Assembly: GCF_003334815.1 (NCBI RefSeq)
Contig: NZ_QOWO01000001.1
DNA from: Escherichia coli
GTDB lineage: Bacteria > Pseudomonadota > Gammaproteobacteria > Enterobacterales > Enterobacteriaceae
Direction: 5' to 3' (one strand)
Length of the DNA: 64,000 bases
Position 1 is the first letter of the stretch; each line of letters starts with the position of its first letter. Shown piece by piece: positions 29,269-39,230 of this stretch. A program made the position numbers and the translations under genes. The notes below the pieces were generated by a model. It had not been told where the DNA came from. It worked only from the letters and a program-made list of their open reading frames with translations, and did no database searches.

Positions 29269-30699
<1,431 letters not shown>

Positions 30700-30714
30700 G
30701 CGAGGTAACAATGA

Positions 30715-30739
30715 ATTCGCCAGACTGTGTCTGGCGAAT
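30715..30739. repeat. 25-bp palindrome attcgccagac-tgt-gtctggcgaat; member of the CAGAC-N-GTCTG palindrome family
   Basis: Read directly; perfect 11-bp arms around a 3-nt centre, 16 bp after the gltD stop. Confidence 0.7.
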
Positions 30740-31258
30740 CAAATTACTGACGAAGTGCGCGTTGTTTTCTGGCAAATGCGGCATGAGCGTTTGACCTTTC
30801 CTATAATAGGGATAATTTTCAATAAATTGTGCTTTGTTCACCAAGTCTGATGAGTGAAGCACATCAAGCAATTTCTCATTTACAATCCGTCTCAATTACT
30901 TGTTAACACCTCTGACAATACCGATTCTGCAAGCTATTCAGTCTTTTCATTCCATGTAAATTGTCTCGATATTAATATACAAAATATGAATATAAAAAAC
31001 CAATATATTATCCTTAATTATCTATATATTTTCCTATTTTTCAGCGCAAACATTCATGTAATGAATAATTGTCACCACAAACCACCTCACCAGCACCTTA
31101 TTATTCACATGATCGTAACTATAAAATTCATTAAATAAATACATCCCAGCAAGTTGGCTATTTCTGAACGAGTTATTTATTTACATTCACAAACAGATAT
31201 ATATACTGCTTCAGCTTTTTATTTTAAAAAATAAATTTGTTATTAAGGATATGTTCAT

Positions 31259-32023
31259 ATGTTTTTCAAAAAGAACCTCACAACAGCTGCTATTTGTGCA
31301 GCACTTTCTGTTGCAGCATTCAGTGCCATGGCAACAGATTCAACTGATACAGAATTAACTATCATCGGCGAGTATACCCCTGGTGCATGTACCCCAGTTG
31401 TTACGGGCGGCGGCATTGTTGACTATGGGAAACATCATAACAGTGCGCTGAATCCGACCGGTAAAAGTAATAAACTGGTTCAACTGGGCCGCAAAAACAG
31501 CACATTAAATATAACCTGCACAGCACCAACGCTAATTGCTGTAACCTCCAAGGATAACCGTCAGTCGACCATTGTAGCGTTAAACGACACATCCTATATT
31601 GAAAAAGCTTATGATACTCTCGTAGATATGAAGGGAACGAAAAACGCCTTTGGTTTAGGTTCTGCGCCTAATGGACAAAAAATTGGCGCTGCATCCATTG
31701 GTATTGACAGGTCTAATGGTGGGATTCACGCGGCGGACGATACAGGTGAAATTCCTGTCGACCTGATTCAAACTGACCACTGGTCAGCAGCGACCCCCAC
31801 ATGGAAAGCCTCATCTAATGGCGCATTCTGCTCGCTGACAAGTTGCTCAGCAATCGAGCGCGGTTATTCTGTTGCAAAAACAGGGGAACTGACACCTGTT
31901 GCCATTACAGCGGTCACCTTCCCGTTACTGATTGATGCTGCGGTAAATGACAATACTATTCTTGGTTCTGATGAAACGATCAAACTGGATGGTAACGTCA
32001 CTATCAGCGTTCAGTATTTATAA
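31259..32023 (+). CDS. gltF: Fimbrial-subunit-like secreted protein GltF
   Basis: 254-aa ORF with a signal peptide; paralogous to YhcF (shared C-terminal LDGxxxISVxYL). Confidence 0.9.
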   Translation: MFFKKNLTTAAICAALSVAAFSAMATDSTDTELTIIGEYTPGACTPVVTGGGIVDYGKHHNSALNPTGKSNKLVQLGRKNSTLNITCTAPTLIAVTSKDNRQSTIVALNDTSYIEKAYDTLVDMKGTKNAFGLGSAPNGQKIGAASIGIDRSNGGIHAADDTGEIPVDLIQTDHWSAATPTWKASSNGAFCSLTSCSAIERGYSVAKTGELTPVAITAVTFPLLIDAAVNDNTILGSDETIKLDGNVTISVQYL

Positions 32024-32194
32024 GAACTTGTAATACAGTTTTTATTTTTACGCATTAACCAGTTAGCTATAACTCGGACAGATTATGCCCTATGACATGG
32101 TCTGTCTTAATCAATCTCATCGCAAACAGTGCATAACATATATTAACAATATGTTTCTGCGTTATTTATCATTATTACAGGAGTTTTAATTTAA

Positions 32195-32869
32195 ATGCTC
32201 AGACACATTACATTCACTGTATTTATAACAACATCAATGAATACCTTAGCCACAGGGATGGTTCCTGAAACATCAGTATTGCTGGTTGATGAAAAGCGTG
32301 GTGAAGCTAGTATTAATATTAAGAATACAGATGATCATCCTTCATTGCTTTACACCACCATTGTTGATTTGCCTGAAAGCAATAAATCAATTCGTTTAAT
32401 CCCGACTCAGCCCGTTATTCGTGTTGAAGCCGGTCAAGTACAACAGGTTCGATTTTTACTTCAGGCGACTGTTCCTCTGCAATCAGAAGAGCTGAAACGC
32501 GTAACGTTCGAAGGTATTCCACCAAAAGATGACAAGAGCAGCAGAGTTACTGTTTCAATTCGTCAGGATCTACCTGTACTGATCCACCCGGCTTCCCTGC
32601 CGGAAGAGCGAGAGACCTGGAAATTCCTGGAATGGCGTAAAAATGGCGACCAAATTGAGATTAGCAACCCCAGTAATTATGTCGTTCGTATGACCTTACA
32701 ATTTAAAACGCTCCCTTCAGGAAAAACGGGGGCTATAAATAAGACCTATTTTCTACCACACACCAGTACAACTACTGCATTAACAAACGCTACGGATACA
32801 AAAGTCGAGTTTTACCCAGCCAGCCGATATGGTTATCGCGGTAATAAATATGTCACTGACTTAAAATAA
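32195..32869 (+). CDS. yhcA: Periplasmic fimbrial chaperone (PapD-like)
   Basis: 224-aa ORF with signal peptide and chaperone fold motifs. Confidence 0.9.
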   Translation: MLRHITFTVFITTSMNTLATGMVPETSVLLVDEKRGEASINIKNTDDHPSLLYTTIVDLPESNKSIRLIPTQPVIRVEAGQVQQVRFLLQATVPLQSEELKRVTFEGIPPKDDKSSRVTVSIRQDLPVLIHPASLPEERETWKFLEWRKNGDQIEISNPSNYVVRMTLQFKTLPSGKTGAINKTYFLPHTSTTTALTNATDTKVEFYPASRYGYRGNKYVTDLK

Positions 32870-32889
32870 CTTTGCCTGGAGCGACAAGG

Positions 32890-35271
32890 ATGTTAAAAAA
32901 AACGTTACTGGCCTACACCATTGGTTTTGCCTTTTCTCCCCCAGCCAATGCAGATGGTATAGAGATTGCCGCTGTTGATTTTGATCGGGAAACATTAAAA
33001 TCACTAGGTGTAGATCCTAATATATCGCATTATTTTTCCCGTTCAGCCCGTTTTTTGCCAGGTGAATATTCACTGATAGTATCAGTAAATGGCGAAAAAA
33101 AAGGCAACATTGCTACGCGCTTTGATGAAAATGGCGACATTTGTCTTGATCAGGCATTTCTGCAACAAGCCGGTTTAAAAATTCCTTCTGAAGAAAAAAA
33201 TGGCTGTTACGACTATATATTGTCCTACCCGGGTACCACAATCACACCATTACCTAACCAGGAAGCGTTAGATATTATCGTTTCACCACAGGCGATCATT
33301 CCCATAGGGTTGGATCTCACAAACGCAGCAACTGGTGGAACAGCTGCGCTGCTAAACTACTCTCTGATGAGCAGCCGTGCAGAATTTTCTAATGGGAGTT
33401 CGGACTACTCCCAGGCTGCACTTGAAGGTGGGATTAATATTAATGACTGGATGTTACGCAGCCATCAGTTCCTTACACAAACAAATGGCACATTCAGTAA
33501 CCAGAACTCGTCAACCTACCTTCAACGTACCTTTACAGATCTTAAAACACTCATGCGAGCAGGTGAAGTTAACCTCAATAATAGCGTGTTGGAAGGAGCC
33601 AGTATTTACGGTATCGAAATCGCACCGGACAACGCATTGCAAACCAGCGGCAGTGGTGTGCAAGTTACTGGTATAGCCAACACCTCTCAGGCTCGTGTCG
33701 AGATTCGTCAACAAGGAGTTTTAATTCATTCCATTCTGGTTCCTGCGGGCGCATTCACTATCCCTGATGTACCTGTTCGCAATGGTAATAGTGATCTTAA
33801 TGTCACCGTTGTCGAAACAGACGGTAGTTCGCACAACTATATTGTTCCCTCCACCCTGTTTAATCAGCATGTAGAAAGCTTCCAGGGTTATCGCTTCGCG
33901 ATAGGGCGGGTAGACGATGACTATGACGAATCACCTTGGGTAATTAGTGCATCGAGCGGATGGAATCTGACACGCTGGAGTGCAATGAACGGCGGCGTTA
34001 TCGTAGCAGAAAATTATCAGGCGGCATCAATCCGGTCGAGTCTGGTTCCCCTGCCCGATTTAACAGTGAGCAGCCAAATTAGTACATCGCAGGATACGAA
34101 AGACTCACTGCAAGGACAGAAATATCGTCTTGACGCGAACTACAATCTCCCATTTTCACTTGGGCTAACAACCAGCCTCACTCGATCTGATCGCCATTAT
34201 CGCGAACTGTCTGAAGCGATTGATGATGATTATACCGATCCGACTAAAAGCACTTATGCGCTTGGTTTAAACTGGTCTAACTCCATTCTGGGTGGTTTCA
34301 ACATCAGTGGCTATAAAACATATAGTTACGACGGTGACAATGACTCAAGCAACCTTAATATTAACTGGAACAAAGCGTTCAAACACGCCACGGTTTCCGT
34401 CAACTGGCAGCATCAACTTAGTGCTTCAGAAAATAATGAAGACGATGGTGATCTGTTCTACGTCAACATCAGTATTCCATTTGGCAGATCAAACACCGCC
34501 ACACTGTATACTCGCCATGACGATCATAAAACCCACTATGGTACTGGTGTCATGGGAGTCGTCTCAGATGAGATGTCCTACTATGTGAATGCTGAACGAG
34601 ATCACGACGAACGTGAAACGAGCTTGAACGGCAGTATCAGTTCCAATCTCCATTACACCCAAGTCAGCCTTGCCGCAGGAGCAAGCGGCAGTGATAGCCG
34701 TACTTACAACGGTACGATGTCAGGTGGTATTGCCGTACATGATCAGGGAGTGACCTTTTCACCGTGGACTATCAATGACACTTTCGCCATCGCAAAAATG
34801 GATAACAATATTGCAGGTGTCAGAATTACATCTCAGGCAGGCCCAGTATGGACAGATTTTCGGGGTAATGCCGTCATTCCATCAATCCAGCCGTGGCGAA
34901 CATCAGGAGTTGAGATCGATACCGCCAGCTTGCCAAAAAATGTCGATATCGGTAACGGCACAAAAATGATCAAACAAGGCCGTGGTGCAGTAGGGAAAGT
35001 CGGATTCAGTGCGATAACACAACGCCGTGCATTACTCAATATCACACTTTCCGACGGCAAAAAACTGCCCAGAGGCGTTGCGATTGAAGATAGTGAAGGC
35101 AACTATCTGACAACATCAGTGGATGACGGTGTTGTATTCCTCAATAACATCAAACCGGACATGGTGCTAGATATAAAAGATGAGCAGCAATCATGCCGTA
35201 TTCACCTTACATTCCCAGAAGATGCACCAAAAGATGTGTTCTATGAGACAGCAACAGGAGAGTGCCAATGA
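32890..35271 (+). CDS. yhcD: Outer-membrane fimbrial usher
   Basis: Trimmed to MLKKTLLAYTIG... (793 aa); ATG confirmed at 32890. Confidence 0.9.
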   Translation: MLKKTLLAYTIGFAFSPPANADGIEIAAVDFDRETLKSLGVDPNISHYFSRSARFLPGEYSLIVSVNGEKKGNIATRFDENGDICLDQAFLQQAGLKIPSEEKNGCYDYILSYPGTTITPLPNQEALDIIVSPQAIIPIGLDLTNAATGGTAALLNYSLMSSRAEFSNGSSDYSQAALEGGININDWMLRSHQFLTQTNGTFSNQNSSTYLQRTFTDLKTLMRAGEVNLNNSVLEGASIYGIEIAPDNALQTSGSGVQVTGIANTSQARVEIRQQGVLIHSILVPAGAFTIPDVPVRNGNSDLNVTVVETDGSSHNYIVPSTLFNQHVESFQGYRFAIGRVDDDYDESPWVISASSGWNLTRWSAMNGGVIVAENYQAASIRSSLVPLPDLTVSSQISTSQDTKDSLQGQKYRLDANYNLPFSLGLTTSLTRSDRHYRELSEAIDDDYTDPTKSTYALGLNWSNSILGGFNISGYKTYSYDGDNDSSNLNINWNKAFKHATVSVNWQHQLSASENNEDDGDLFYVNISIPFGRSNTATLYTRHDDHKTHYGTGVMGVVSDEMSYYVNAERDHDERETSLNGSISSNLHYTQVSLAAGASGSDSRTYNGTMSGGIAVHDQGVTFSPWTINDTFAIAKMDNNIAGVRITSQAGPVWTDFRGNAVIPSIQPWRTSGVEIDTASLPKNVDIGNGTKMIKQGRGAVGKVGFSAITQRRALLNITLSDGKKLPRGVAIEDSEGNYLTTSVDDGVVFLNNIKPDMVLDIKDEQQSCRIHLTFPEDAPKDVFYETATGECQ

Positions 35272-35813
35272 AACGGATAATAACAGGATGCCTGCTGCTG
35301 AACTTCGCCATGGCCGCTCAGGCAGAGTGTAATATCTCCAGTAGCATACAAAATATCGACTATGGCAAACGAAGTGCTGCCATGCGCCAAGTTGACCGGG
35401 GTAAAACAACACAATTAGCAGACAGAACAATCACGCTGGTAATGCAATGCGATCAGGACGCTCATATTCGTGTTCAGTTGAATACCGCTAATATTTCCAA
35501 CAACGGATTTGGATTTGGCCCGAATGGTTCATTAAATCTGATCGCCAGCGATGCATTTTCAGGTAGTAACAATCTCGACCTGGCGTTAGCCAGTGGCAAA
35601 AATGACAATCCGGGCAGCACAGGAACAGCATCAATTAGTACTTCCCCCAATAATTGGCTGGTGTTTATGCAAAATGGTCAAGAAGTGGTAATTGATAGCG
35701 GTAAAAGCGTTAGCCTCACACTGACAATGGCTCCAGCTTTTAAGGATGAAGGGGAACTAACCGACATGACAGATATTACAGGCAATCTGACGGTCCTGGT
35801 GGAGGCAAAATGA
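35262..35813 (+). CDS. yhcE: Fimbrial-cluster secreted protein YhcE (intact, 183 aa)
   Basis: Uninterrupted ORF with a signal peptide overlapping the yhcD stop; I recall this gene as IS5-disrupted in K-12 MG1655. Confidence 0.7.
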   Translation: MPMKRIITGCLLLNFAMAAQAECNISSSIQNIDYGKRSAAMRQVDRGKTTQLADRTITLVMQCDQDAHIRVQLNTANISNNGFGFGPNGSLNLIASDAFSGSNNLDLALASGKNDNPGSTGTASISTSPNNWLVFMQNGQEVVIDSGKSVSLTLTMAPAFKDEGELTDMTDITGNLTVLVEAK

Positions 35814-36526
35814 ACAATGTAAAATTACTGATTGCCGGAAGTGCCTTTTTTGCCATGTCAGCGCAAGCCGCTGATAGAGTATCAATTGACGTTAAGGTGA
35901 CTCTGGAAGCTGCAGCTTGTACTCCAATACTAAGCAACGGCGGAGTTGTTAACTTCGGTAGTCATTCAGTCAATAGACTTTCAACGCAGCACTACACACA
36001 GATTGGAACACGTAATATTAATATGACTATAACTTGCGAATCCGCTACCGGCATTGCGATTACCGCTCGTGATACACGAATGGATAGTATGACCACCGGA
36101 AAAGATAGTGGGGGTCAGAGTGGTGTAAAATATACCTTAAATGGCGGAGGTTATATTAGCCAGACAACGCGCTTATTCGGCTTAGGGAAAACAAAAGATA
36201 ATAAAAATATCGGTAGTTATGCCGTGTTAATTGATAGCAACAACATTAGTGCCAGCAATGGTAGCCAGACGTTAGCTGTATCAATAGCAGGTGCAGATGC
36301 CGTCATAACAGGGCAAAAAAGAGCATGGCAAACGCTCACCGCTTATCCGCTTGCAGTCGATCAAAGCTATTATTACACCTTTGTAAAACCAGGTGAAACA
36401 ACCCCAACTCCTGTAACGAACGCCATTATACCGCTTCAGGTGAGCGCATCTATCGCGAATGATTTAGGCGGTTCAGAAAAAATCGAACTTGATGGGAAAG
36501 CTGTGATAAGCGTAGTCTACTTGTGA
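35810..36526 (+). CDS. yhcF: Fimbrial-subunit-like secreted protein YhcF
   Basis: 238-aa ORF with a signal peptide; paralog of GltF. Confidence 0.88.
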   Translation: MNNVKLLIAGSAFFAMSAQAADRVSIDVKVTLEAAACTPILSNGGVVNFGSHSVNRLSTQHYTQIGTRNINMTITCESATGIAITARDTRMDSMTTGKDSGGQSGVKYTLNGGGYISQTTRLFGLGKTKDNKNIGSYAVLIDSNNISASNGSQTLAVSIAGADAVITGQKRAWQTLTAYPLAVDQSYYYTFVKPGETTPTPVTNAIIPLQVSASIANDLGGSEKIELDGKAVISVVYL

Positions 36527-36710
36527 TAACAATGCCGGACAGGAGTACTATCAGGCATTCGTTTTATACGATCGGTTAATGTTTCAGGAAAGCTCTTCGC
36601 ATATCTTGGGGAAAGTAAATGTAATACGCTGTTCTTAATTGTTCAGTGCTCACCCCCCAGAGTATAGCTCATTCCATTATTCAACTTAGCTCCATATAAA
36701 GGGACAGATA

Positions 36711-37838
36711 ATGGAATCGCTCTCAGAAGGAACCACAGCAGGCTACCAGCAAATCCACGACGGTATTATTCATCTGGTCGATAGCGCCCGGACGGAAACG
36801 GTACGTAGCGTTAACGCGTTAATGACCGCGACGTACCAGGAAATTGGCCGACGAATTGTCGAATTTGAACAAGGTGGCGAGGCCAGGGCTGCGTATGGTG
36901 CGCAGCTAATCAAGCGACTATCAAAGGATTTATGTCTAAGGTATAAGCGTGGGTTCTCTGCAAAAAACTTACGCCAAATGAGGCTTTTTTACCTCTTTTT
37001 TCAACATGTTGAAATTCGCCAGACAATGTCTGGCGAATTAACACCATTGGGAATTCCGCAGACACCGTCTGCAGAATTCCCATCGGCAAAGATTTGGCAG
37101 ACGCTGTCTGCCAAATCTTTCCCCTTGCCCAGGTCCACCTACGTCCGTTTACTTTCCGTTAAAAACGCTGACGCCCGCAGCTTTTATGAAAAAGAGACGC
37201 TCCGCTGTGGCTGGTCTGTTCGCCAGCTAGAGCGGCAAATTGCGACCCAGTTTTATGAGCGGACACTACTGTCACATGACAAATCAGCCATGCTGCAACA
37301 ACACGCTCCTGCCGAGACGCATATTCTTCCGCAACAGGCGATACGCGATCCCTTTGTGCTCGAATTTCTGGAATTGAAAGATGAATATTCAGAATCCGAT
37401 TTTGAGGAGGCGCTGATCAACCACCTGATGGATTTCATGCTGGAACTTGGGGATGATTTTGCCTTTGTTGGTCGGCAGCGAAGGTTACGCATTGATGACA
37501 ACTGGTTTCGTGTCGATCTGCTGTTTTTCCACCGCCGTTTACGCTGCCTGCTAATCGTCGATCTAAAAGTGGGCAAATTCAGCTATAGCGATGCCGGACA
37601 GATGAATATGTATCTCAACTACGCCAAAGAGCACTGGACGCTACCGGATGAAAATCCGCCCATCGGTCTGGTTCTCTGTGCAGAGAAAGGAGCCGGAGAA
37701 GCGCATTATGCTCTGGCAGGTTTGCCTAACACCGTTCTGGCAAGCGAATATAAGATGCAACTACCTGATGAGAAACGACTCGCAGATGAACTCGTTCGAA
37801 CACAGGCGGTGCTAGAGGAAGGCTATAGACGCCGTTAA
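36711..37838 (+). CDS. yhcG: YhcG-family (DUF1016) protein, PD-(D/E)xK nuclease-like C-terminal domain; function unknown
   Basis: 375-aa ORF; the C-terminal segment (...FAFVGRQRRLRIDDNWFRVDLLFFHRRLRCLLIVDLK...) fits a PD-(D/E)xK-type core by recall. Confidence 0.85.
   Translation: MESLSEGTTAGYQQIHDGIIHLVDSARTETVRSVNALMTATYQEIGRRIVEFEQGGEARAAYGAQLIKRLSKDLCLRYKRGFSAKNLRQMRLFYLFFQHVEIRQTMSGELTPLGIPQTPSAEFPSAKIWQTLSAKSFPLPRSTYVRLLSVKNADARSFYEKETLRCGWSVRQLERQIATQFYERTLLSHDKSAMLQQHAPAETHILPQQAIRDPFVLEFLELKDEYSESDFEEALINHLMDFMLELGDDFAFVGRQRRLRIDDNWFRVDLLFFHRRLRCLLIVDLKVGKFSYSDAGQMNMYLNYAKEHWTLPDENPPIGLVLCAEKGAGEAHYALAGLPNTVLASEYKMQLPDEKRLADELVRTQAVLEEGYRRR
37013..37119. repeat. Three tandem palindromes (37013-37039 perfect 27 bp; 37050-37080, 31 bp with 1 mismatch; 37089-37119 perfect 31 bp) inside the yhcG coding sequence
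   Basis: aattcgccagaca-a-tgtctggcgaatt; ggaattccgcagac-acc-gtctgcagaattcc; aagatttggcagac-gct-gtctgccaaatctt, all read directly. Confidence 0.75.
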
Positions 37839-37853
37839 TTTCAGCGGTTTCGA

Positions 37854-37878
37854 ATTCTGCAGACAGTGTCTGCAGAAT
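37854..37878. repeat. 25-bp perfect palindrome attctgcagaca-g-tgtctgcagaat between the convergent yhcG and yhcH stops
   Basis: Read directly; same CAGAC-N-GTCTG core and GAATT arms as the intragenic copies. Confidence 0.75.
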
Positions 37879-37897
37879 CTTTAAAACGAACTAAGTT

Positions 37898-39230
<1,333 letters not shown>

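Follow-up and report, generated by a model that had tools for sequence, protein, structure and literature searches.

The yhcG gene of Escherichia coli occupies positions 36711..37838 (+ strand) of the stretch of DNA analysed here (hereafter the window, 64 kb from a K-12-like E. coli) and encodes a protein of 375 residues from the DUF1016/YhcG family of PD-(D/E)XK nucleases, as assigned from the list of open reading frames (ORFs), the RefSeq annotation of identical DNA, Pfam and PADLOC. Inside this coding sequence (CDS), and in frame with it, lies a short DNA palindrome that, judging from the comparison of homologous sequences, is an ancient and ancestral element whose place within YhcG/DUF1016 nuclease genes is the same throughout Bacteria and Archaea. 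In the window it takes the form of a tandem array of three 39-bp (13-codon) units (37011..37127, + strand; residues 101-139), which a direct-repeat finder delimits with spacings of 39 and 39, each unit being composed of one palindrome and a spacer of 8-12 nt. The palindrome of unit 1, AATTCGCCAGACAATGTCTGGCGAATT (37013..37039; like the other palindromes, without strand), is perfect, with two 13-nt arms around a single central base, and occupies the position of the family-wide, ancestral palindrome. That of unit 2, GGAATTCCGCAGACACCGTCTGCAGAATTCC (37050..37080), has 14-nt arms around 3 nt and one mismatched pair, while that of unit 3, AAAGATTTGGCAGACGCTGTCTGCCAAATCTTT (37088..37120), is again perfect, with 15-nt arms around 3 nt. 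The three units are 70-78% identical to one another and are translated as EIRQTMSGELTPL, GIPQTPSAEFPSA and KIWQTLSAKSFPL, respectively.

Two further copies stand free at either side of this region: one similar to unit 1, ATTCGCCAGACTGTGTCTGGCGAAT (30715..30739), which lies 15 nt past the gltD stop codon, at the extreme left end of the gltF-yhcADEF island, and another similar to unit 2, ATTCTGCAGACAGTGTCTGCAGAAT (37854..37878), placed 15 nt past the yhcG stop codon, between the convergent yhcG and nanQ genes. Both had been overlooked in the initial annotation of this DNA, which had otherwise recognized, correctly according to both the sequence and the repeat finder, three palindromes in yhcG (two perfect and one with a single mismatch) and the in-frame triplicated peptide motif that they produce, whose period is exactly 39 bp. 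The sizes that it gave (27-31 bp, within 37013-37119) and the GAATT(C) outer arms that it attributed to all three hold for units 1 and 2, which have GAATTC, but not for unit 3, which is longer, reaches 37120 and has AGATTT/AAATCT instead.

These palindromes are far beyond chance, which is excluded as their origin. The motif CAGAC-N1-3-GTCTG is found six times in the window, for an expectation of 0.07, and the 25-nt pattern ATTCNSCAGACNNNGTCTGSNGAAT, allowing up to 3 mismatches, five times, as opposed to 0 in 100 shuffles. Likewise, none of 1000 synonymous-codon shuffles of yhcG attains a 15-nt arm. Perfect palindromes with arms of 11 nt or more and loops of up to 3 nt number only six in the whole window, and four of them belong to this family; the remaining two, AAAGCCCCGCAACGTGTTGCGGGGCTTT (2892-2919) and TGATGAAGATTAATCTTCATCA (18309-18330), are unrelated to it. 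The RNA fold across the array (36990-37140), a check that had been suggested at the outset, is indeed very stable (z = -10.6), and the single DNA hairpins of the units range from -10.8 to -15.7 kcal/mol (-13.1 kcal/mol for unit 1), with z from -5 to -8.

A palindrome at a fixed position in the YhcG/DUF1016 family

A scan of one genome per prokaryotic species (298 Gb) with ATTNNSCAGACNNNGTCTGSNNAAT yielded at least 120 loci, where about 17 matches would be expected by chance (our own arithmetic). These loci span Actinobacteria, Proteobacteria, Bacteroidetes, Firmicutes, Acidobacteria, Verrucomicrobia, Cyanobacteria, Planctomycetes, Methanomicrobiales, Woesearchaeota and others, and, among the matches listed, 102 of 130 sites are inside YhcG-like ORFs, with 98 of 104 ORF matches in one and the same codon phase, which results in the peptide I-x-Q-T-x-S-[AG]-[QKE], usually just before LSWSHY. 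The three free positions of the pattern are Watson-Crick paired in 96, 88 and 85 of 97 sites of this set, using 18 different paired triplets.

Since that set had been chosen by the pattern itself, a second, pattern-independent sample was fetched by alignment of the C-terminal nuclease domain alone, comprising 80 loci from viral contigs and 68 distinct genes. In 45 of these 68 genes the longest perfect palindrome of the gene lies in the 60 nt that precede the Trp codon of LSWSHY, in most cases with its centre at exactly -18 nt, and 23 of the 68 exceed all of 200 synonymous-codon shuffles; furthermore, a hairpin with at least 9 pairs is present in 48 of 63 distinct linkers. The palindrome of the family measures 17-31 bp, typically with arms of 12-14 nt around a centre of 1-3 nt. 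Regarding the number of units, the initial expectation that other DUF1016 proteins carry a single segment at this position is partly right, but two or three units, with periods of 30-57 nt, appear in many unrelated lineages, and between two and five have arisen independently in other phyla.

Several lineages depart from the common arrangement. In three loci (L021, L097 and L013; labels of this type designate the loci compared) a CAGAC-type palindrome lies approximately 45 codons further upstream, inside an N-terminal helix (…YG.qILQTLSAKL..YG.GFS…), and L021 has, in addition, a different palindrome, AATTGTCGTGACACTGTCACGACAATT, at the canonical position. The inner 13-mer of the family has the form xxGAC-RNY-GTCxx, a spacing that suits a dimeric DNA-binding protein; its L021 version, GTGACACTGTCAC, equals the matS consensus of MatP, GTGAC-RNY-GTCAC, probably by coincidence. 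Arms are longer in other loci, with a perfect 19-nt arm in L076 (1836-1924), 21 matched pairs in L087 when one mismatch is allowed and, by eye, arms of up to about 24 nt in L019 (5709-5781), which shows that the palindrome can extend outward into the flanking codons or the flanking DNA. In a metagenome-assembled genome of the candidate division FCPU426 (L022, 11-2163), 36 copies of a palindrome, TCCCCGCACGTGCGGGGA, are arranged with a 61-nt period, in the manner of a clustered regularly interspaced short palindromic repeats (CRISPR) array, a few kb from a DUF1016 gene.

The encoded loop and the YhcG protein

Pfam divides YhcG into DUF1016_N (PF17761; residues 19-184) and YhcG_C (PF06250; residues 208-360), and therefore the palindrome units, at residues 101-139, fall inside the N-terminal domain. 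An AlphaFold model built from 23 close orthologues was unusable, with a predicted local distance difference test (pLDDT) score of 46, whereas one built from a diverse alignment reached a pLDDT of 87. In the resulting AlphaFold2 model, residues 97-114 of the single-unit protein are coil, have the lowest confidence and connect the helices 84-96 and 115-122; thus, the palindrome is predicted to encode a surface loop of the N-terminal domain. This placement fits the length of the linker among family representatives, which varies from 12 to 78 residues and includes up to five repeated units.

The family is a large one: searching 1.84 billion representatives clustered at 50% identity gave 25,215 matches at E <= 1e-3, a number that falls to 11,373 at E <= 1e-10. 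Its C-terminal nuclease domain has a fold closest to that of NucS/EndoMS, and profile analysis had previously tied the YhcG nuclease to Holliday-junction resolvases (PMC1189080). For the N-terminal domain no informative structural match was obtained, a PDB sequence search with YhcG gave only chance-level matches and no solved homologue, and NCBIfam contains no model for YhcG. PADLOC, on the other hand, matches YhcG to the defence candidate PDC-S02 (E = 4e-136), and YhcG/DUF1016 homologues have been described as enriched beside restriction-modification and BREX genes and as recurring on mobile elements (PMC9881135). A homologue is encoded in only 15 of 50,697 phage records, a rarity for which a phage origin was rejected.

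The nucleotides are kept, and not the peptide

When the palindromes of different lineages are stacked on the Trp codon, they share a common centre and have very different arms, as illustrated by GTCACGCAcTGCGTGAC, CAATTTGCTACACAcTGTGTAGCAAATTG, ATTTTCCAGTCAgTGACTGGAAAAT, GTGTCACCAcTGGTGACAC and CTCTCAACAcTGTTGAGAG, and forms of even length also occur, such as GTGAACGCA/TGCGTTCAC. The peptides encoded at the same place can be completely unrelated (HALRDE, SPLVTQ, IVNACVHN). In 40 windows aligned on the Trp codon, 72% of the positions of an 11-pair helix form pairs; the corresponding figure is 48% in shuffles, none of which attains the observed value in 500 trials, and does not exceed 42% when the register is slid. 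Of the 11 pairs, 10 change on both sides, so that the covariation, being beyond that of both the shuffled and the slid controls, is that of a structured element with conserved base pairing.

The same is observed at closer range. In the Enterobacteriaceae, where the order gltB-gltD-yhcG is syntenic in Salmonella, C. freundii, Pseudocitrobacter and E. coli, the triplets in the arms are CGC/GCG in E. coli, CCG/CGG in Salmonella, CAC/GTG in E. albertii and both GTG/CAC and CTC/GAG in Pseudocitrobacter, and each of these compensatory changes alters amino acids; a divergent allele of E. coli itself has the palindrome AATTGTGCAGACACTGTCTGCACAATT. Contrary to the outcome that had been named at the outset as refuting a DNA-level feature, the divergence of the orthologues preserves the palindromes and does not destroy them. 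Within clades, some parts of the arms are strongly conserved (CAGAC, ATT and the centre CA-N-TG), while the triplet between them varies freely. Moreover, L155 and L162 carry ATTCGCCAGACAGTGTCTGaCGAAT, identical in 24 of 25 positions to the unit of E. coli O157, but there it is read one nucleotide out of frame, as FARQCLTN and not as IRQTVSGE, and L153 is likewise frame-shifted relative to the L124 type. What is conserved, then, is the two-fold symmetry of the nucleotides, and not the peptide.

An explanation at the protein level would regard the symmetry as a codon coincidence of a conserved peptide, I-x-Q-T-x-S-[AG]-[EKQ]. The motif is in fact widespread in one large clade, where it adjoins the conserved LSWSHY, and CAG-ACN-NNG-TCT-G can encode Q-T-x-S-G/A. 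However, this explanation is refuted by two observations: L153, L155 and L162 use a different frame for the same nucleotides, and there are copies outside any ORF, such as that at 30715-30739, which belongs to no ORF of the YhcG family and has a stop codon directly upstream in the frame of the unit. In addition, clades with unrelated peptides keep their palindromes, amino acids change so that the pairing stays, and synonymous shuffles destroy the palindromes. The probability left to a peptide repeat is virtually nil, and the initial proposal that this is a feature of the nucleic acid, and not the product of selection on the peptide, is sustained by the compensatory changes that alter amino acids and by the lineages that use a different frame.

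Unit number and rearrangements in Escherichia

Salmonella, Citrobacter and Kluyvera have one unit (IEIQQTLSGES...), whereas the alleles of E. coli have one, two or three. The units of the orthologues align at the place of unit 1, and two of the three units of the K-12-type array are extra with respect to the single-unit orthologues in the protein alignment. The single unit of O157 differs from unit 1 of K-12 in one central base (A in K-12, G in O157), and its allele is 78 bp shorter, i.e., two 39-bp units. Among 5426 complete E. coli genomes, the junction of unit 1 to unit 2 is present in 3205 and the single-unit junction in 209. Accordingly, the alignments indicate that the triplication of K-12 is a lineage-specific expansion from one to three units, which would be most simply explained by slippage between units able to form hairpins. 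The initial suggestion that the element had colonised the gene or expanded inside it is thus half right: the single unit of Salmonella, C. freundii and O157 speaks for an expansion, but the notion of a miniature insertion falls, as one unit is ancestral and keeps its codon position throughout the DUF1016 family, both bacterial and archaeal.

With a number of units that varies between strains, the array is a variable-number tandem repeat, and yhcG is in fact already in use as LSPA-6, an amplicon-length marker for the lineage typing of E. coli O157:H7 (PMC3514354; PMC8733641). It is the same locus, and the 78-bp difference between O157 and K-12 amounts to two units; the typing papers treat the length polymorphism, with no mention of palindromes, of conservation or of the wider family.

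In K-12-type genomes the gltD-side palindrome is separated from yhcG by the fimbrial island gltF-yhcA-yhcD-yhcE-yhcF (30740..36580, + strand; right boundary approximate; delimited from ORFs and junction comparison), which is absent from O157-type and L002-type genomes. In these (L001 and L002, respectively), gltD directly adjoins yhcG, at a distance of 184 bp, and relative to them the island is an insertion. The O157-type spacer between gltD and yhcG is homologous to that of Pseudocitrobacter and therefore ancestral; the gltD-side copy is missing from O157-type genomes. In the yhcF-yhcG spacer (36527-36710), a stationary-phase non-coding RNA, G0-10703, has been reported, divergent from yhcG and antisense to its 5' untranslated region (UTR) (PMC7967276).

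Several deletions end at the palindromes. In E. coli of sequence type 131 (ST131), yhcG is absent and the gap between gltD and nanQ is reduced to 67 bp that contain one palindrome, whose left flank matches that of the gltD-side copy of K-12 and whose right flank resembles that of the copy downstream of yhcG. E. albertii has lost the nuclease half of the gene by a deletion between an internal unit and the downstream copy, which left the hybrid AAATTGGCAGACACTGTCTGCAGAATC, with the crossover at the core; the copy at 37854-37878 is hence a partner in both deletions. In strain H2 (L003), yhcG is replaced immediately after unit 3, whose right end is the junction (directly after GCCAAAT), and several other strains are truncated at that same point (query position 406). 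The DNA that takes the place of the 3' part of the gene in H2 (L003, 3497-3802) is foreign and contains a 101-residue ORF annotated as a transposase, for which no NCBIfam or PADLOC match was found. In another locus (L205, ~2023-2780), IS1B is inserted in the right arm of the gltD-side palindrome and the DNA has been lost up to the middle of yhcG. A read-through allele (P0030) translates the downstream copy, as FRILQTLSGES.

The region is also mosaic. The O157 and L002 alleles are identical over 210 nt, diverge by 15-33% over ~100 nt upstream of and including the palindrome, and then by ~0-3%; the divergent tract (columns 211-330 of the L001/L002 alignment, equivalent to ~36920-37040 of the window) is, in L002, only 5-10% away from Pseudocitrobacter. 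Two haplotypes of the protein, NLRQMR..FYL[YF]FQ and NLWQ[FI][KR].FY.CFQ, segregate also within Salmonella and within Citrobacter. This pattern points to a trans-species polymorphism or to repeated gene conversion, and, as far as the alignments indicate, the copies of Escherichia mark deletion and recombination breakpoints as well as a mosaic tract.

Copies outside the gene

A sensitive search with one unit across the 5,426 complete E. coli genomes located the element at 1-5 places per genome (median 2), and every match listed or inspected is at the gltD-yhcG-nanQ locus. The copies that the initial annotation proposed to look for across the genome do exist, then, but solely at this locus, and their palindromy is kept among E. 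coli strains. Non-Escherichia enterobacterial orthologues have no external copies. Further afield, in the Clostridia loci L031, L048 and L059, the gene has a copy on either side: the first separates a TGnTATAAT -10 box from the ribosome-binding site and the second immediately follows the stop codon (the neighbours of L048 and L059 are rsmI- and polC-like, by eye from the first residues). A copy upstream of the gene is found in L031, L048, L152 and L170. L062 has a single DUF1016 gene between 51-bp direct repeats, 98% identical, that hold the palindrome, and, at a distance of a few kb on one side, a pair of dnaJ- and dnaK-like genes. External copies carry the lineage-specific core of the internal one, namely CAGTC in L152, GTGAAC in L170, CTCGAC in L059, CTCAAC in L191 and GCAGAC in E. 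coli.

Some copies have no DUF1016 gene nearby. These are two overlapping intergenic copies in L033 (4088-4138), a solitary copy ~60 nt upstream of an hsdM-like ORF in L007 (233-257) and solitary copies beside P4-type integrase-like ORFs in L078 (4150-4174) and L088 (7624-7648), the ORFs of the last three loci being assigned by eye.

Comparison with known elements

Repetitive extragenic palindromic sequences (REPs) are intergenic, number hundreds per genome and have a Y1/HUH transposase as a partner, whose genes (RAYT, for REP-associated tyrosine transposase) are flanked by REPs. The element of yhcG resembles them, and the bacterial interspersed mosaic elements (BIMEs), in that it is a short, imperfect palindrome that may lie by stop codons and in that the gene of an enzyme acting on nucleic acids is tied to cognate palindromes; L062 and L048, flanked by copies, are much like RAYT genes flanked by REPs. 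Unlike REPs, its main copy is inside the CDS of a PD-(D/E)XK nuclease with a fold nearest to NucS, and not a Y1/HUH transposase, and there is no dispersal into tens to hundreds of intergenic copies, given the 1-5 places per E. coli genome. Rickettsia palindromic elements (RPEs) are selfish repeats of 100-150 bp, present in many unrelated genes of one genus. Both they and the yhcG element are in-frame palindromic DNA inside ORFs that translates into a tolerated peptide segment and is a feature of the nucleotides, but the latter has 17-33 bp, belongs to one gene family at a fixed codon position, and extends to Bacteria and Archaea. An origin as a dispersed miniature mobile repeat, REP- or RPE-like, that landed in yhcG would be suggested by its being palindromic, short and in frame within a gene, and by the few intergenic copies just after stop codons. 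Yet the copies are confined to one locus in E. coli, the element was not seen inside other genes (among the matches listed, the sites in YhcG-like ORFs are at one position) and no RAYT-type gene was noticed at the loci inspected, for which this origin was rejected as very improbable; even taken together, a peptide repeat and a dispersed mobile repeat deserve scarcely any credence.

Other classes fit no better. The units differ from a CRISPR array in that they are 70-78% identical, have spacers of 8-12 nt and lie in frame inside an ORF. An intrinsic terminator was likewise rejected: none of the five copies was matched in a terminator scan of 30600-38000, and their tails (AACACC, CCATCG, CCCCTT, CAAATT and CTTTAA) have no T run, that of the copy after yhcG included. 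As for integron attC sites, the main copy is intragenic, and the window and the loci inspected show single genes next to ordinary chromosomal ones, with neither cassette arrays nor an integron integrase noticed. Programmed frameshifting was dismissed as well, for 12 nt separate the stem of unit 1 from the T run that precedes it, and this run is specific to E. coli. Rfam 15 gave no match at E <= 1 in 30000-39000 of the window or in nine other palindrome-bearing loci.

There are, in addition, partial likenesses to well-known systems. ToxI is a non-coding array of 36-nt units upstream of a toxin gene that is processed by the toxin, and RpnS is a protein made from an internal start; in the type III toxin-antitoxin (TA) system ToxIN and in Rpn, as in yhcG, an element in or beside the gene accompanies a defence-associated nuclease, and the unit lengths are similar (36 and 39 nt). 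Unlike ToxI and RpnS, however, the yhcG units are translated in frame inside the CDS of the nuclease, and their mismatch spectrum does not favour RNA. The intragenic auxiliary operators lacO2 (in lacZ) and galOI (in galE) each serve one operon with a separate repressor. They are, too, symmetric DNA in a CDS that can cooperate with a promoter-proximal copy (as might be the case in L031, L048, L152 and L170), but in the yhcG family it is the internal copy that is universal, that upstream being sporadic, and the arms show covariation in place of conservation. Hotspots of template switching at quasi-palindromes, where one arm is copied from the other and the inverted repeat is thus perfected, arise at arbitrary places; they would yield compensatory changes and expansions such as those seen here, whereas the yhcG palindrome holds one codon position in a family of more than 11,000 representatives. 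Finally, the ColE1 inverted repeat, with 13-bp arms, forms a cruciform that is cut by T7 endonuclease I or T4 endonuclease VII. With such cruciform/resolvase systems the yhcG element shares arms of 12-14 nt, a short loop and a nuclease of a PD-(D/E)XK-type acting on junctions or distortions as its putative natural reader, although here the palindrome sits inside the gene of the enzyme itself. In the searchable literature on yhcG/DUF1016, which is incomplete, no description of the palindrome, of its conservation or of its presence across the family was found. Because the features of REPs, RPEs, CRISPR, attC and terminators are lacking, and there is no match in Rfam or in that literature, the palindrome appears to be undescribed and we rate it as a new kind of element, with a function that can be proposed as follows.

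DNA or RNA

Among 81 distinct internal palindromes, the stem mismatches in the sense orientation are 13 A·C, 5 G·T and 10 of other types, and the free positions of the pattern-selected set contain 6 G·T and 6 A·C. There is no excess of G·U, and therefore no sign of the G·U tolerance that would mark an RNA helix of the sense strand. In odd-length palindromes the centre is R-N-Y, i.e., strand-symmetric, and those of even length are complementary through the centre, with one compensatory change of the innermost pair (CATG to CGCG). On the other hand, the innermost pair of the odd-length class shows no covariation, as in a hairpin, and the Clostridia loci, in which all copies are on one presumed transcript, look more hairpin-like. 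As a whole, these sequence features favour DNA over RNA, although not decisively.

The reading to which we tentatively give most credence, without going quite as far as an even chance, is that the element acts as DNA, either as a hairpin or cruciform or as a symmetric duplex, and is the cognate site of the product of the very gene that surrounds it, a probably homodimeric, NucS/EndoMS-like PD-(D/E)XK nuclease. Being embedded in the CDS, the site would always be co-inherited with the enzyme, and binding or cutting at such a self-site would allow the control of the nuclease by autoregulation or sequestration. As a side effect the spot would become recombinogenic, which would account for the variation in unit number, the mosaic tract, the deletions ended at palindromes and the occasional copies just upstream or downstream of the gene. 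That external copies share the lineage-specific core of the internal one supports a sequence-specific reading, and an enzyme similar to NucS and related to resolvases fits a symmetric or branched DNA target.

Alternative explanations

The palindrome could work instead as a hairpin of the yhcG mRNA, which would slow ribosomes between the parts of the protein, control the decay of the mRNA or be an RNA ligand that holds the nuclease inactive; in a variant of the latter, reminiscent of type III TA systems, the copy in the 5' UTR, the one to three internal copies and the 3' copy would set the RNA-to-protein ratio. The stem-loops are certainly very stable as RNA, the copies of L031, L048 and L059 (in the gap between the -10 box and the ribosome-binding site, and after the stop codon) would all be on one transcript, that of E. 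coli lies 15 nt past the stop codon, the covariation of the stem together with the non-covarying innermost pair of odd-length forms fits a 3-nt loop, and tandem multiplication is tolerated. What makes this explanation fairly unlikely is that G·U is not in excess over A·C in the sense strand, that even-length palindromes are complementary through the would-be loop and the R-N-Y centre is symmetric between strands, that Rfam has no match for the window region and the nine further loci scanned, that there is no usable slippery site at frameshifting distance, and that the copies after gltD and in ST131 are not on the yhcG transcript. A different possibility, which needs no function at all, is that of a neutral, self-perpetuating palindrome: an ancestral quasi-palindrome in a loop tolerant to peptide changes would owe its lasting symmetry, its extension and its multiplication to template switching and intra-palindrome gene conversion during replication, the covariation being then a mutational product and not one of selection. 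The template-switch correction of quasi-palindromes is an established mutational process, and counts in its favour, as do the poor constraint on the encoded loop, the perfect symmetry that sometimes includes the centre, the equal rarity of G·T and A·C mismatches, the unstable number of units and the copies that remain perfect where the gene is dead or absent (the truncated gene of E. albertii, the L070 pseudogene and ST131). Against it, the centre is at the same nucleotide relative to the Trp codon in Bacteria and Archaea, over at least 11,000 representatives at 50% identity, and short palindromes are prone to deletion, so that a fixed centre could hardly be maintained in the absence of selection; within clades, some stretches of the arms are strongly conserved while the triplet between them is free; the external copies are at operator-like or cassette-boundary positions and share the lineage-specific core; and extra units do decay (unit 2 in K-12, unit 3 in Pseudocitrobacter). 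We consider neutrality unlikely.

A third explanation would make the palindrome the boundary or attachment site of a minimal mobile unit, palindrome-gene-palindrome, that enters and leaves solitary palindromes, with the internal copy as a by-product or a third site. It draws on the L062 gene lying within 51-bp direct repeats that hold the palindrome, on the genes of L048 and L059 flanked by copies, on the K-12 arrangement of palindrome, island plus yhcG, and palindrome, as against the one palindrome that ST131 has at the same place, and on the solitary intergenic copies by integrase-like ORFs of the P4 type (L078, L088) and upstream of the hsdM-like ORF (L007). However, the synteny of yhcG in Salmonella, Citrobacter, Pseudocitrobacter and E. 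coli indicates that the gene is vertically inherited, and hence that the state of ST131 is a loss; orthologues outside Escherichia in the enterobacteria have no external copies and, overall, only about 10% of genes have flanking ones; a nuclease alone cannot perform strand exchange; no case was found of one cassette at two different sites; and deletion between short direct repeats needs no dedicated machinery. All this renders a cassette boundary quite improbable.

The self-site in DNA, in turn, has to face several objections of its own. That YhcG binds or cuts the palindrome is something that we infer, and no single physical form of the element accounts for everything: a dimer reading duplex DNA does not by itself explain the covariation at non-conserved positions of the arms, and the stability of a hairpin does not explain the complementarity at the centre of even-length palindromes. 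The innermost pair of the odd-length class, as said, shows no covariation. With 13-nt arms, the extrusion of a cruciform needs strong negative supercoiling. About a quarter of the genes selected by their C-terminal domain have no clear palindrome, external copies accompany only about one gene in ten, and ST131 keeps a perfect copy despite having no yhcG. The case that mismatches make against RNA is built on small counts, with 18 informative ones, and the footprints of recombination could be the passive consequence of any short repeated palindrome.

Implications for the YhcG/DUF1016 family

Carried one step further, the proposal of a DNA self-site would lead to putative self-addressed YhcG/DUF1016 nucleases, in which each gene carries in frame the palindromic site of its own nuclease, a generalization that is possible but that we hold to be doubtful. 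The specificity of such enzymes would drift by compensatory changes of both arms, and site and enzyme would make up a two-in-one module, which could work as the switch of a defence nuclease and respond to a cruciform, supercoiling or single-stranded DNA. Solitary palindromes could even be the places where the gene moves or is exchanged, in the form of a palindrome-gene-palindrome cassette. If this were true, the pairing of a cis element with an enzyme would be of a class not described so far, and the self-site as such, if right, would connect a nuclease with its target or regulator in a new way.

For DUF1016/YhcG, a large family with no characterised function, the palindrome represents a first concrete handle, as a candidate substrate or control site, accessible to synthesis and to direct tests with the purified protein. 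It is also one of the few clear cases of a protein whose sequence is dictated, over very long evolutionary distances, by selection on DNA symmetry and, closer to the everyday use of this locus, it explains both the LSPA-6 yhcG typing marker and the local hotspot of deletion and mosaicism in E. coli.

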